A DNA stretch of 64,000 nt from Eubacteriales bacterium (GTDB taxonomy: Bacteria > Bacillota > Clostridia > Oscillospirales > CAG-272): assembly GCA_045602385.1 (NCBI GenBank), contig JAZSBL010000023.1, forward strand, positions 34,598 to 98,597, written 5' to 3'. Below are positions 3,231 to 23,650 of this stretch, piece after piece. Positions within the stretch are counted from its first letter, which is position 1; every line of letters begins with the position of its first letter. A program made the position numbers and the translations under genes. The notes beneath the pieces were generated by a model. The model was not told the DNA's origin. It ran no database searches and saw nothing but the letters and a program-made list of their open reading frames with translations.

Positions 3231-4280
3231 TTAAAGCCCTGCCTTGAAAATTTCTTCAAGTGAGTCTACGGACACCTTATAGAGCCTTGAATCACCGATT
3301 CCGTAGGGCATGACGAGGGTTATGCTGCCGCCCTGGCGCTTTTTGTCGTTAAGGGCGATGTCTGCAAGACTTTGCGCGGTGTATGGACATTCGGTAGGCA
3401 GACCGTAGGACCTGATAAGCGAGATCGCCTCGGCGCAGTCCTCTTTACTGCACAATCCGAGAGAGTTAGCCGCGCGGAGTATTATTGCCATTCCAATAGC
3501 AACGGCGGAGCCGTGAGAAATCGAAAAATCCGAGAGGATCTCAATAGAGTGTGCCGCTGTGTGGCCGAGATTTAGGAGCTGTCTTACTCCTGTGTCGCGC
3601 TCATCCGCGTCAACGACGTCACGCTTATTGCAGACGCAATTTTCGATAACATCCTCGATTTGGGGGAGAATAGGAGCTTTTAATTTCTCAAAAAGCTCGC
3701 GGTCGTTTATAATACCGTATTTGATGACCTCCGCGCATCCGTCGGCAAAGACGTCACGGGGCAGTGTCGAAAGCGTTTCGTAGTCACAAAGGACAAGCGA
3801 GGGCTGATAGAATGCGCCTACGAGATTCTTGCCTTCGGGAATGTCGATCGCTGTTTTGCCGCCGACAGAGGAGTCTACCATAGCAAGCAGGGTAGTGGGG
3901 ATCTGAACAAACTCAACTCCGCGCAAATAGGTTGCCGCGCAAAATCCGCAGAGGTCGCCGACAACTCCGCCGCCAAGGGCGAAAAGGCAATCCGAGCGGG
4001 TTATTTTATTCAAAGCCAGGAAAGACAGAAAGGCAAGATAGGATTCCGCACTTTTAGATGTTTCTCCCGCGGGAATGACGTAGGATACGACCTCGTAGCC
4101 CGCAGAACGAAGCGAGACTTCGAGTCTTTCAAGATAGAGGGGAGCTACGTTTGAGTCGGTAAGCACCGCCGCGCGGCAGGGCTTTTTGACGGTGGAGCAA
4201 AGCTTGCCTGCACGGTCGAGGATCCCCTTGTCGATTATTATATCGTAAACGCGAGACGCGTTGACTGTGACCTTTTTCAT
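3231..4280 (-). CDS. aroB: 3-dehydroquinate synthase
   Basis: 349 aa. GGGVVGDLCGFCAATYLRG, VDSSVGGKTAID and NLGHTAAH motifs of DHQ synthase. Confidence 0.94.
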   Translation of the reverse strand: MKKVTVNASRVYDIIIDKGILDRAGKLCSTVKKPCRAAVLTDSNVAPLYLERLEVSLRSAGYEVVSYVIPAGETSKSAESYLAFLSFLALNKITRSDCLFALGGGVVGDLCGFCAATYLRGVEFVQIPTTLLAMVDSSVGGKTAIDIPEGKNLVGAFYQPSLVLCDYETLSTLPRDVFADGCAEVIKYGIINDRELFEKLKAPILPQIEDVIENCVCNKRDVVDADERDTGVRQLLNLGHTAAHSIEILSDFSISHGSAVAIGMAIILRAANSLGLCSKEDCAEAISLIRSYGLPTECPYTAQSLADIALNDKKRQGGSITLVMPYGIGDSRLYKVSVDSLEEIFKAGL

Positions 4281-21464: not shown

Positions 21465-21686
21465 AATGCATCTCACAGTAAGTTATTTGCGCTGTGCGCC
21501 TGTGGTTATTATAGCATTTTGGGGTGGGGTTGTCAATATGTTTTGCGGTTGTGTTGGAATGTTGTTCATAATATGAAATTTTCACCGCCGTGGGATAAGC
21601 GTTGGACTTGTGAGAACACCGCCCGAGTTCGGGCGCGGGCACTGCCCGCCCGCGAGTCTACGAGTTCAAGAAGCGGCTTGCGCAAA

Positions 21687-21724
21687 AGAAATAAGCCGAT
21701 GGGAAATCCCATCGGCTTATTTCT
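21687..21724. terminator. strong bidirectional hairpin
   Basis: AAATAAGCCGATGGG-aaat-CCCATCGGCTTATTT, about 120 nt downstream of the 21844 gene stop. Confidence 0.75.
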
Positions 21725-21843
21725 GTGAGTAATCTAAAATTTTGATACCATTTCAAAATGGGTGCAAATTTTAGTGTTATGGGTGCATTTTCCTATTAGG
21801 CTTTGCCCCCATTTTCTATTTAAATTAAAATCACCTATCAAGT

Positions 21844-22920
21844 TTATTTATCAAATACAAAAATATAGTTTTGATCTGACCAAGTTGCAAAGGAAAAATC
21901 TTTTGCTATGTAGAAATCCTCAAACTGAAGCTCGCCATTATCCTTTGCTCGAAGCTGATAGCAGTCGTGCACCTCTCTGTCAATACGACCGCCCATGACT
22001 TCTTTTTCCAAGTTAACAACAAAGGCATTGGGGTTCTCCTTCATATCGTCAAGATCGAACGCAAAACCTATTGTGTATCTCGACAGAACGAACGCGGTAT
22101 TTTTATCTACATTAAGCCACTCACCGTTCACACACGTATAAACACCTTCAGGTAAAACATATGTGTTGTCGTCCCAGAAATACTTAAGTTCGCTGGTAGA
22201 AGTGAAGGTAACTGTATCACCAACCTGCGTTACCTTTGCACATACTTGAGTGGATTCTGTGTTGTAATTGTAGAGACTGTTTATAGTATAGCTCTTACTC
22301 TTAGTCTGAAGAGTTTCAATAATAGTAGCAACCTCTTCATTGCTCATATCAGATGTGTTTTCTCTTACTTTTGAAACAGCACCGCCGATAGCTCCAATGA
22401 CAATCATGGCAACAATGACGATAACTGAAAGCAAAGCCTCTTTACGGGGCGACGATACGATAGTGCCCTTTTCACCGAGCTTTTTTTCTAATCTTAAGTG
22501 CTTAATAAGTCTTACAACAATTTCGGCAGGCACGAGATAAAAAGCAACCACTGCAACTAAAAGCGCTACCGCGCACTTCATAAACGGACCGACTAAAACA
22601 GAATCAATTTTGCTTACGTCTCTTTTGTTTCCATACTGATCAATCTCGTACTCCTTGTATTGAAAATCGAATAAGGAACCAAATCCCGAGAACCAAAATT
22701 TGAGAATGAGAGGTCCGCACCAAGTTACAATAAGAGCGAGCATTGGAATGCTTCCCAAGGGACCCGCGCCAAATGCATTAAGCACAATGCTTAAGGCGGC
22801 CCCCACCAAACCTATGAAGAATAGAAGAAACCTTTTCTTGAAGGCGTCAAGGTTATCTTCCAACTTGTAGCGCACGTCCGCAAGATGCTGATCTTCTTTG
22901 TAGTCAATTGTGTCTTCCAT
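21844..22920 (-). CDS. multi-pass membrane protein with C-terminal extracytoplasmic domain, function unknown
   Basis: Start moved to ATG 22920 (MEDTIDYKED, SD CAGGAGGAAAAA). Four hydrophobic segments, then a ~190-aa soluble domain. Confidence 0.7.
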   Translation of the reverse strand: MEDTIDYKEDQHLADVRYKLEDNLDAFKKRFLLFFIGLVGAALSIVLNAFGAGPLGSIPMLALIVTWCGPLILKFWFSGFGSLFDFQYKEYEIDQYGNKRDVSKIDSVLVGPFMKCAVALLVAVVAFYLVPAEIVVRLIKHLRLEKKLGEKGTIVSSPRKEALLSVIVIVAMIVIGAIGGAVSKVRENTSDMSNEEVATIIETLQTKSKSYTINSLYNYNTESTQVCAKVTQVGDTVTFTSTSELKYFWDDNTYVLPEGVYTCVNGEWLNVDKNTAFVLSRYTIGFAFDLDDMKENPNAFVVNLEKEVMGGRIDREVHDCYQLRAKDNGELQFEDFYIAKDFSFATWSDQNYIFVFDK

Positions 22921-23194
22921 TGTTTTTCCTCCTGAAAATGAAATAAAAAATGCGGCAACCGAAGTTAACCGCATCGAAAAACGCAAACTCCGATTGTCGC
23001 TACACAAACTGAAGATAGAATTAGAGTATCTCTACCATAATCACTTCGTGGAATTTGCGATTTTACCAAATTCATAAAAGTAATTATGGCGAAAAAAGGG
23101 TATAATTATCCCATAAAAGAAAAAAATACCGCCAATTCTAACTATTCAGTTTGTGTAGCATACTCATTATACACCTTTTAAATAAATATTTCAA
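22921..23194 (-). promoter_or_regulatory. promoter plus 239-nt structured leader with terminator for the 21844-22920 gene
   Basis: TTGAAA (23194-23189), 17 nt, TATAAT (23171-23166). The transcript would begin at a 15-bp perfect long-range stem GCUACACAAACUGAA (23159-23145) / UUCAGUUUGUGUAGC (23013-22999). The hairpin AUGCGGUUAAC-uucg-GUUGCCGCAU plus UUUUUUAUUU (22974-22941) sits just before the SD. Confidence 0.55.
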
Positions 23195-23234
23195 TAGTTT
23201 TTGGACAGAAAAAGAGAAGAATTTATAAAAAGAT

Positions 23235-23286
23235 ATAAATTGAACGATACCCCATAAATTGAACGAAAGGGGTATAAAATGAACGA
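23235..23286. repeat. three direct 13-bp repeats ATAAA(T)TGAACGA spaced 19-20 bp
   Basis: Copies at 23235-23247, 23254-23266 and 23274-23286, at about -75 to -127 from the predicted TSS at 23159. Confidence 0.8.
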
Positions 23287-23350
23287 TTTACATTTTACAA
23301 ATAAAAACAAAAAGGCTTGCAAGGACGAAGCTATCCTTACAAACCATACA

Positions 23351-23524
23351 GATTTAATGAAATCCTGCTTTGCAGGATGAAATCCAAACAAGTTTGGATG
23401 AAATCTTCGGCGTGCCGCCACAGATGAAATCAAATCCGCCACTTTTGAACCTTGCGAGGCAAGATTTCATCACAAAGTGATTTCATCCACGAAGTGGATT
23501 TATTCCGCAGAAGGCGGATTTAGT
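23351..23524. repeat. array of eight ATGAAATC / GATTTCAT motifs (4 direct + 4 inverted) separated by short hairpins
   Basis: ATGAAATC at 23357, 23377, 23398 and 23424. GATTTCAT, GATTTCAT, GATTTATT and GATTTAGT at 23463, 23479, 23497 and 23517. Intervening palindromes include ATCCTGC-ttt-GCAGGAT, ATCCAAA-caag-TTTGGAT, ATCAC-aaa-GTGAT and ATCCAC-gaag-GTGGAT. Confidence 0.85.
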
Positions 23525-23526
23525 TG

Positions 23527-23564
23527 AAAAAGACTCAAGATTGTATCCAATCCCGAGTCTTTTT
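23527..23564. terminator. terminator immediately 3' of tRNA-Leu (bidirectional form)
   Basis: AAAAAGACTC-18 nt-GAGTCTTTTT. Confidence 0.7.
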
Positions 23565-23565
23565 C

Positions 23566-23650
23566 TGGTGCGGAAGACGGGACTTGAACCCGTACAGTGT
23601 GAACTACACGCCCCTCAAACGTGCGCGTCTGCCAGTTCCGCCACTTCCGC
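23566..23650 (-). tRNA. tRNA-Leu (anticodon GAG), class II with long variable arm, encoded CCA
   Basis: Manual cloverleaf of GCGGAAGUGGCGGAACUGGCAGACGCGCACGUUUGAGGGGCGUGUAGUUCACACUGUACGGGUUCAAGUCCCGUCUUCCGCACCA. Acceptor GCGGAAG/CUUCCGC, anticodon stem CACGU/GCGUG, loop UU-GAG-GG, T-arm ACGGG-UUCAAGU-CCCGU. Closely parallels E. coli tRNA-Leu. Confidence 0.92.

Follow-up and report, generated by a model that had tools for sequence, protein, structure and literature searches.

The hairpin array beside tRNA-Leu(GAG)

A 64,000-nucleotide stretch of contig JAZSBL010000023.1 from a Eubacteriales bacterium, called the window below and supplying all coordinates, contains an array of short repeated motifs and mini-hairpins just beyond a tRNA-Leu gene. 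The conserved unit of the array is about 173 nucleotides (nt) long (23354-23526) and was assigned to the minus strand, co-directional with the tRNA; comparison with homologues places it in the Gut-1 family of Rfam. A preliminary description of the same DNA had recorded eight motifs in two orientations, together with five hairpins, and all of the positions, spacings, and hairpins were confirmed on the sequence. On the plus strand, ATGAAATC starts at 23357, 23377, 23398, and 23424 (spacing 20, 21, and 26) and GATTTCAT at 23463 and 23479, followed by the degenerate copies GATTTATT at 23497 and GATTTAGT at 23517 (spacing 16, 18, and 20). Seven ATGAAATC sites are present in the window, where about 3.7 are expected, and six of the seven fall inside 130 bp; the array is also the only cluster of RTGAWAT sites in these 64 kb. 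The motifs are referred to below as linkers, and the features of the locus, in minus-strand order but with plus-strand numbering, are as follows.

23756-23728 (-): consensus promoter of tRNA-Leu(GAG) (promoter scan 12/12)
23566..23650 (-): tRNA-Leu(GAG) (ARAGORN; Rfam tRNA, 49 bits)
23526..23565 (-): T1, hairpin terminator that has an A run and a U run (GAAAAAGACTCGGG..GAGTCTTTTTC)
23441..23525 (-): F domain, covered by the Rfam Gut-1 model (Gut-1 match, 40-element alignment, pair counts)
23519-23525: F domain, linker m1, degenerate
23504-23518: F domain, hairpin H1
23498-23503: F domain, linker m2, degenerate
23487-23497: F domain, hairpin H2, followed by the linker at 23480-23486
23471-23479: F domain, hairpin H3, followed by the linker at 23464-23470
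23450-23463: F domain, hairpin H4, followed by the spacer at 23441-23449
23431..23440 (-): centre, 3' strand of the long-range helix P1 (GGCGGAUUUG), pairing with 23513-23521
23354..23430 (-): R domain, four AUUUCAU linkers (plus-strand ATGAAAT at 23424, 23398, 23377, and 23357)
23405-23423, 23384-23397, and 23364-23376: R domain, hairpins H5, H6, and H7
23296..23345 (-): T2, one-directional intrinsic terminator (GGUUUGUAAGGA..UCCUUGCAAGCC then UUUUUGUUUUUAUUU; terminator scan)

When folding was compared with that of shuffled sequence, the two strands gave z = -6.1 and -7.6, and none of 200 shuffles was as good. Two flush hairpins add to the five already described, namely H4 (23450-23463) and H5 (23405-23423), the latter with a G.A beside a U.G mismatch. 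A perfect 9-bp long-range pairing joins 23432-23440 with 23513-23521, and because the latter bases also form H1 on its 5' side, P1 and H1 cannot coexist. The T2 hairpin (23345-23314) and its U run lie on the minus strand directly beyond the array.

A bipartite member of the Gut-1 family

The array gave no match in an Rfam run at the gathering threshold, which for Gut-1 (RF01706) is 50 bits, both arms falling below it. A permissive scan matched Gut-1 twice: at 23459-23526 of the minus strand (34.6 bits, E = 1e-4), which is the F domain, and at 23345-23409 of the plus strand (39.1 bits, E = 8e-6), which is the reverse complement of the R domain. These alignments span model positions 1-77 and contain three consecutive hairpins with the (G/A)UGAAAU linker between them; degeneracy of the first two linkers, together with the use of AUGAAAUC as linker, keeps the window copy below threshold. 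It aligns end to end with 39 other elements (the 40-element alignment A1, with 68% mean column identity), and homologues in that alignment, including those at L165, L191, L129, L215, L200, and L238 (loci are designated by L and a number throughout), score 52-78 bits for Gut-1. Because many of the aligned F domains pass the Rfam threshold, the window copy is taken to be a divergent member of the family. The conclusion that the array is a complete, sub-threshold Gut-1 member, whose functional orientation is probably the minus strand like that of the tRNA, is well supported by this homology to accepted members, and the earlier statement that the array resembles no named repeat family does not hold. 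Its nearest homologues are about 80-85% identical and are found at other tRNAs in other metagenome-assembled genomes (MAGs).

The original description presented Gut-1 as a probable non-coding RNA, seen only in human gut metagenomes, and proposed no function for it (Weinberg et al. 2010, Genome Biol 11:R31, PMC2864571). The flanks of the seed sequences in that study in many cases carry four forward linkers (GUGAAAU/GUGAUAU), a short centre, and four reverse linkers (AUUUCAC/AUAUCAC), with hairpins in between, and one seed is directly 3' of a tRNA end and terminator. Because the seed flanks thus show a forward array, a centre, and a reverse array, the Rfam model must describe one arm of a bipartite element. 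The model itself is 77 nt long, has the consensus linker GUGAAAU, and includes H1; it shares with the array the short variable hairpins in series, the conserved (G/A)UGAAAU linker, the occurrence in gut Clostridia, and the flanks of the seed loci, but omits the R domain, P1, T1, the adjacency to tRNA or tmRNA, and the linkage to a PF05635 gene described below. In the literature searched, no mention of Gut-1 later than the 2010 description was found, and only one review of diversity-generating retroelements (DGRs), besides that description, bore on PF05635 genes near tRNAs. The second arm, P1, a T1 that travels with the array, placement at a tRNA CCA (or tmRNA-like) end, insertion as part of an islet, and the PF05635 linkage were likewise not found in that literature. 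An orphan motif since 2010, Gut-1 as published is half of a conserved bipartite element.

The family was sampled with a linker-pattern scan of one genome per GTDB species, which returned at least 120 stretches, TGAAATC-type copies being over-represented; most family sequences are MAG or metagenome contigs. The matches listed come mostly from MAGs of gut and rumen Clostridia (Oscillospiraceae, Acutalibacteraceae, Ruminiclostridium, Faecousia, and Christensenellaceae), and among them forward-then-reverse clusters are common and reverse-then-forward clusters essentially absent. Forty-three elements were put in a common orientation, and 40 of them were aligned as A1. The 5' part of this alignment reads CAACUAAAUCC; H1, a degenerate linker, H2, AUGAAAUC, H3, AUGAAAUC, and H4, and the 3' part reads a purine-rich spacer, GG(N)GGAUUUR, and then four AUUUCAU linkers with H5, H6, and H7 between them. 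P1, which encloses H2-H4, is supported by RNAalifold and by explicit pair counts: it is 98% paired and has four covarying pairs across the 40 homologues, with compensatory pairs in the proportions GC/AU 26:13, CG/UA 25:13, and CG/UA 22:12, and its covariation score was reached in none of 500 shuffles. H1, with which it competes, is 93% paired in the homologues and also has four covarying pairs. The structure as a whole is 97% paired, versus 87% in shuffles and 30-44% when partners were slid. Linker spacing varies from 16 to 28 bp across elements, and in 104 of 113 elements the F and R domains carry linkers of the same type.

Of 1124 juxtaposed stem positions, 1015 are Watson-Crick pairs, despite the variation in stem sequence among copies. 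At the level of sequence comparison, these counts show strong selection for hairpins of arbitrary sequence that are joined by invariant linkers. The F domain contributes 424 Watson-Crick pairs together with 2 G.U, 7 A.C, 0 G.A, and 3 C.U, and the R domain contributes 591 together with 10 G.U, 3 A.C, 76 G.A, and 1 C.U; the G.A pairs, conserved and in tandem, belong to H5 and H6 and are restricted to the canonical strand. Counts of G.U versus A.C mismatches showed no asymmetry from which a strand could be chosen, and this test is uninformative because the adjacent T1 terminators, used as a control, show the same lack of asymmetry. Loops are mostly of three bases and are polar, with UUC, UGC, and UAU in the F domain and GAA, AAA, GUA, GCA, and GGA in the R domain. 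The R-domain loops include GCGAAGC, a classic and very stable DNA mini-hairpin.

The two arms resemble a single type of unit in opposite orientations, and the preliminary description had called the whole segment a large imperfect palindrome. This is correct for the linkers but not for the hairpins: of 543 comparisons between arms in 74 elements, only one gave hairpins that were identical or reverse-complementary. A true long palindrome or cruciform of the whole segment was rejected because the hairpins of the two arms are unrelated. Kissing between the loops of F and R hairpins was also rejected, as 38 complementary matches were found within elements and 39.6 were expected. Two MAGs each hold a pair of elements 0.4-1 kb apart, with linkers ATGAAAT and ATGATAT (L165:2987-3150 and 3402-3568) or GTGAAAT and ATGAAAT (L215:305-457 and 1389-1557), and the F and R linkers match within each of the four. 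If linkers are protein sites, more than one specificity would coexist in one genome.

tRNA ends, the PF05635 gene, and the 1836-bp insertion

At least 26 elements, that of the window included, are found 57-90 bp downstream of a co-oriented tRNA gene, and at least 12 tRNA identities are represented; two further elements (L132 and L157) follow 3' ends that resemble tmRNA by eye, the tmRNA mode of ARAGORN not having been applied. The association is not due to chance, because the 868 kb examined contain only 52 tRNA genes. In the GTDB sample, among the matches listed, CCA and an A run precede 28 of 44 elements, and a T1-type terminator precedes 33 of the 44. The conserved block begins directly after the CCA, and identical T1 hairpins were found at different tRNAs in different MAGs; thus, T1 travels with the array. 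The T1 of the window belongs to a sequence family common to elements at tRNA genes for Glu (L122), Leu-CAG (L189), and Val (L222).

Downstream of the array, again among the GTDB matches listed, 11 of 45 elements have a promoter and an open reading frame (ORF) of about 115 amino acids (aa), 12 have a terminator, and 22 have something else. The ORF encodes a protein of PF05635 (E = 1e-25), the four-helix-bundle family of Avd and of the 23S rRNA intervening sequence (IVS). Working from the protein instead, we surveyed 80 metagenome loci encoding PF05635 relatives of 68-97% identity: the array is directly upstream of the gene in 64 of the 71 loci with enough upstream DNA, and a co-oriented tRNA is present as well in 31 of the 40 with longer flanks. 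The PF05635 gene is the only recurrent downstream gene (63 of 104 sites), the genes beyond it being variable, and in most complete copies it abuts the last linker together with its promoter. The 3.5 kb downstream of each of the 104 sites showed no recurrent integrase or transposase, and no RAYT or IS200-type gene, reverse transcriptase, template repeat, or variable repeat was found in the same neighborhoods. Tandem units occur at L168, L164, and L165, and at L134, T1 and the array stand alone between two copies of ..ACCAGAAAAA.

The array-linked PF05635 proteins (e.g., at L210 and L189) contain ANIREAKYAHS, giving an R-x5-H spacing reminiscent of HEPN RNase motifs, but the R is not invariant, being C in L189. 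Typical members of the family presumably carry ANIAEG at this site.

A phage origin was considered and discarded, as two scans of viral contigs returned mostly chance or coding tandem repeats. Only L011, L029, and L100 are convincing phage copies, those of L100 and L029 being on the sense strand, whereas L051, L291, and L300 resemble host flanks; three copies are too few to support a role as a packaging site or origin. The one at L011:5150-5350 (IMGVR_UViG_3300031867_000663) is a bipartite Gut-1-type array in the head module of a phage; it lies within a non-coding gap of 1.3 kb, shortly before a TerL-like gene, and adjoins two other tandem repeats (GGTAACTTGCC x4 and TATCTGC xn); this single region may be a packaging or origin region. 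A further set of copies, termed type B, is found between upstream sequence and the first terminator; the upstream sequence reads as an ORF end in L213, the copy whose orientation was checked.

Related loci were found through homologues of the neighboring P-II-like protein. The eight recovered (L241, L243, L244, L245, L246, L438, L440, and L441) represent five distinct sequences: L241/L441, L243, L244/L245, L246, and L438/L440. All eight share this tRNA-Leu(GAG), its promoter, and its leader, all have their own terminator straight after the CCA, and none has the array, i.e., all are empty. In four of the eight, that terminator is the native one that in the window now stands 1.84 kb from the tRNA. 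Relative to L241, the closest of these, the window matches at 98.5% from 23693 to 23562, up to CCAGAAA; the match resumes at CAGAAATAAGCCGATGGGATT(T)CCCATCGGCTTATTTC, which is the native terminator, and continues through the acyltransferase gene (21725-20277). The two alignment blocks overlap by six bases (L241 5713-5718), and the 1836-bp segment between them (23561-21726) is therefore flanked by direct CAGAAA repeats. The features of the insertion are as follows.

23562..23567 (-): left 6-bp direct repeat CAGAAA, i.e., the last two bases of the tRNA CCA and then GAAA (L241 alignment)
21726..23561 (-): 1836-bp insertion (L241 alignment, eight empty sites, GC, Pfam)
21720..21725 (-): right 6-bp direct repeat CAGAAA (L241 alignment)
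21684..21723 (-): displaced native tRNA-Leu terminator (GAAATAAGCCGATGGGATTTCCCATCGGCTTATTTC + U run), directly after the CCA in the closest relatives

The GC content of the insertion is 38.2% versus 49-50% in its flanks. On the minus strand it consists of T1, the array, T2, three ATAAATTGAACGA repeats, a promoter with a leader of about 240 nt, a 359-aa ORF, and a right end of about 120 bp. The window holds this one array copy and no PF05635 gene, so that the copy is an orphan; a Pfam search found no recombinase or integrase in the insertion, and for the right end of the islet no match, and hence no sign of conservation, was found in the loci compared. No long duplication of a tRNA 3' end was detected above control level at the far end of the insertions. 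It is well supported, by comparison with the empty sites, that the array is not native to the locus but the tRNA-proximal end module of a horizontally acquired islet of 1.84 kb. That this islet separated tRNA-Leu(GAG), at its CCA end, from the native terminator and brought T1 as a replacement is equally well supported. For annotation, the array, T1, T2, and the 359-aa ORF thus count as acquired DNA, outside the tRNA-Leu locus proper.

The preliminary description had offered three explanations, among them a putative cruciform-forming locus that binds protein. Another, sites left by an element that used the tRNA as its attachment site, came closest: the array does end an insertion at the CCA, at a position empty in eight related loci, but no integrase was found, and any role in recombination is hypothetical. 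The same description held that its reading would fail if the array belonged to a REP-like family dispersed over unrelated loci, or if it was neither transcribed nor conserved beside tRNA-Leu in relatives. The family is in fact present at many unrelated tRNA loci, and the eight related loci lack the array; a locus-specific small RNA (sRNA) is therefore refuted on those terms.

Several other features of the insertion and its surroundings were noted. The cargo ORF (21844-22923, minus strand; 359 aa) has predicted membrane segments and no Pfam match at E <= 0.01; none of the related loci examined contains it. Its leader of about 240 nt (22924-23165, minus strand), which follows a strong promoter (23194-23166), contains a long-range inverted repeat (23000-23013 / 23145-23158) and the conserved blocks AATTTGGTAAAATCGCAAATTCCA and GCGACAATCGGAGTTTGCGTTTTTCG, and then an intrinsic terminator and ribosome-binding site; it had no Rfam match at E <= 10. 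Homologues of the leader are found before unrelated genes (L203:1083-1259 and L417:2920-3132), and it looks like an unclassified leader of riboswitch or attenuator type. Between T2 and the cargo promoter, the three direct ATAAATTGAACGA repeats (23235-23286; spacing 19 and 20 bp) and an ACCCC/GGGGT inverted pair among them may be operator sites for the cargo gene; L229 has this region at 92% identity. At L241:5440-5590 and L441:4190-4340, a truncated copy of the tRNA-Leu leader and the first ~20 tRNA bases (..ATGCGGAAGTGGCGGAAC|GCAGACCGACGG..) lies upstream of the intact tRNA and adjoins a hairpin-rich stretch, and could be the scar of another rearrangement at the same tRNA. In L241 and L441, the P-II gene and the tRNA are also separated by a TMEM164-family gene that is missing from the window. 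Just one other Rfam family scores above threshold in the window, an S10-Clostridia ribosomal protein leader (RF03136; 31480-31564, plus strand, 42.6 bits); with the nearby glycyl-tRNA synthetase (GlyRS) and L10 genes, it marks an ordinary chromosomal housekeeping region.

Possible roles and comparison with known systems

We tentatively favor, at somewhat below even confidence, the view that the element is a folded single-strand docking platform for which the PF05635 protein is the best candidate partner. The platform would be a chain of flush mini-hairpins, with stems free to vary and invariant linkers between them, in which the repeated units of linker plus hairpin base could present multivalent docking sites to a dedicated protein. 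An array RNA would be a read-through product of the very strong tRNA promoter, terminated at T2; alternatively, the active form could be extruded or replicative single-stranded DNA. Within this reading we lean slightly toward RNA. Pointing to RNA of the canonical strand are the constant co-orientation with the upstream tRNA, and with upstream gene stops in the Weinberg seed annotation; the position of T2 directly after the array, terminators likewise following 12 of 45 GTDB elements among the matches listed; the type-B copies before the first terminator; the sense-strand phage copies; and the strand-specific tandem G.A pairs. The points for DNA are the strong T1 upstream together with the lack of a promoter, linkers and loops that mirror each other, the DNA-type triloops, and the place of the array at an insertion boundary.

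A number of observations weigh against the docking platform. A strong T1 stands upstream of the array and no promoter lies between them, and any array RNA therefore depends on read-through; in the PF05635-linked copies, the promoter of the gene comes after the array, and the two are therefore not obviously co-transcribed. The PF05635 protein is a candidate partner by gene linkage, and about two-thirds of the copies in the unbiased GTDB sample, among the matches listed, have no PF05635 gene, as in the window. The F and R linkers are mutual reverse complements of matched type (104 of 113 elements), which would be explained more simply by one double-stranded DNA site in two orientations than by one RNA strand, and the loops of one arm are likewise mirrored in the other (UUC/UGC in F; GAA/GCA/GUA in R, with GCGAAGC among the latter). 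That G.U pairs are no commoner than A.C mismatches was counted among these points as well but was judged neutral, the T1 control being the same.

A possible, though doubtful, alternative is that the array is a DNA-level cis site for mobility, either an arm-type or accessory binding region or a set of recognition sites like those of a transposon end, for a recombinase acting in trans. Such a recombinase would insert and excise islets at the CCA-GAAA of tRNA/terminator junctions, the linkers being its protein sites in two orientations, and the circle joining right and left ends would be expected to read ..TTACTCACAG|AAAAAGACTCGGG.. or ..GATTACTCACAG|AAAAAGACTCGGG.. at the junction. Consistent with this, the array is always at the tRNA-proximal boundary of inserted DNA, the 6-bp direct repeat CAGAAA flanks the insertion in the window, the L134 unit stands between its two repeated copies, the tandem units (L168, L164, and L165) look as if accreted, and a single motif is used in two orientations, of matched type in 104 of 113 elements; in addition, an array placed between a terminator and a promoter is probably little transcribed, and GNA-type triloops and GCGAAGC favor DNA hairpins. 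It is difficult, however, to reconcile a recombinase site with the lack of a recurrent integrase or transposase at the 104 sites and of any in the window insertion, or with the many copies not visibly at insertion boundaries (type B and phage intergenic). The tRNA-targeting integrases usually leave a long tRNA 3'-end duplication, which is lacking here, and the linkers are 16-28 bp apart with spacers selected as hairpins, whereas we know of no arm-type site array with variable-spacing linkers and hairpin spacers. Decidedly unlikely is a selfish or neutral palindromic repeat of the REP/BIME or MITE kind, whose hairpins would serve only its own single-stranded DNA propagation as it spreads into terminator-proximal intergenic sites and persists without host benefit. 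The dispersal in several copies per MAG at unrelated loci, the presence/absence polymorphism at the tRNA-Leu locus, the intergenic copies after hairpins or terminators, and the commonness of orphan copies without a linked gene would all fit such a repeat; yet, unlike in REPs and MITEs, it is the linkers and the overall architecture that are conserved and the hairpins that vary in sequence among copies, no RAYT or IS200-type gene is linked at the 104 sites, the 64-kb window has a single copy, and the PF05635 linkage (64 of 71) and the tRNA ends suggest a defined function.

Two further explanations concern transcription. The array could be an insulator, with tandem mini-terminators in both orientations that back up T1 against read-through into cargo and tRNA genes; the R-type units are indeed GC-rich hairpins followed by AUUU, the array stands between a very strong tRNA promoter and the cargo promoters, bracketed by T1 and T2, and its two arms show polymerases the same unit from either side. 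We nonetheless regard this as very improbable, because the U tracts are only three bases, termination would make no use of the invariant CAU/AUG of the linker, T1 and T2 already provide canonical terminators, and neither the covariation in P1 nor the PF05635 linkage is explained. The preliminary description had also suggested an sRNA of about 220 nt on the plus strand, ending at the bidirectional terminator and acting as a sponge of the CsrA/Rsm type, since CAGGAUG and UGGAUG strings occur in the window copy and T1 is able to terminate in both directions. This was rejected and has next to no likelihood. An exposed, conserved GGA is lacking across homologues, as only 54 of 100 F linkers have GG before them, and these G residues are paired inside stems; the consensus Gut-1 linker GUGAAAU contains no GGA, and GUGAAAU/GUGAUAU fill the seed sequences; no plus-strand promoter precedes the array in the promoter scan; the canonical orientation of the family is the minus strand here; and no csrA was found in the 64-kb window.

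We infer that the element belongs to mobile islets. A broader proposal, which we consider unlikely, is that the Gut-1 element is the cis signature of small islets of gut Clostridia that insert exactly at the CCA ends of any tRNA or tmRNA gene without a linked integrase or transposase, replacing the terminator and carrying variable cargo, with an Avd-like four-helix bundle (PF05635) as hallmark protein. Were such a class to exist, it would give 23S-IVS/Avd-like proteins a function outside DGRs and would imply mobility via the tRNA 3' end, e.g., by cDNA synthesis or template switching onto CCA ends, or by recognition of single-stranded DNA hairpin arrays. The niche of the element is in any case defined as the CCA end of a tRNA (tmRNA-like by eye), behind its own terminator, with insertions that are polymorphic between close relatives, and the array and the PF05635 protein offer a testable protein-nucleic acid pair, together with a mobility hypothesis, for abundant gut Clostridia.

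Among known systems, REP/BIME/REPIN and IS200/IS605-derived elements share with the array dispersed intergenic hairpins, often as inverted pairs and downstream of genes, and a short conserved single-stranded motif beside a hairpin. REP palindromes are conserved within a genome, however, whereas stems here vary both between and within elements, linkers are conserved, and seven hairpins (eight with H1) have a fixed bipartite order; the array differs further in its specific placement at tRNA ends, its single copy in 64 kb, and the absence of RAYT/TnpA linkage or a recurrent transposase at the 104 sites. Type III toxin-antitoxin systems (ToxI/CptI) also place a repeat array immediately before the gene for a small protein, which could bind and perhaps process the units. 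The ToxI-type units are near-identical, 34-45 nt long, and co-transcribed, with a terminator before the toxin gene, while those of the array are of about 20 nt with variable stems, and a promoter rather than a terminator precedes the linked gene; to our knowledge, PF05635 is not a known endoribonuclease family.

The arm-type or accessory site regions of tRNA-integrating elements and of their integrase-less, CIME-like derivatives resemble the array in having a tRNA-proximal junction, a short motif in both orientations, a junction repeat (here CAGAAA at 23567-23562 and 21725-21720), and tandem units. The array differs from them in its range of at least 12 tRNA targets and its variable hairpin spacers, and neither a linked integrase (in the window insertion or at the 104 sites) nor a tRNA 3' duplication above control level accompanies it. 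The Avd and 23S rRNA IVS proteins differ in that no reverse transcriptase, template, or variable repeat is near the arrays, the insertion is after a tRNA and not inside 23S rRNA, and the window itself has no PF05635 gene; what they have in common with the array-linked gene is membership of PF05635 (E = 1e-25) and the habit of riding on insertions at stable-RNA genes.

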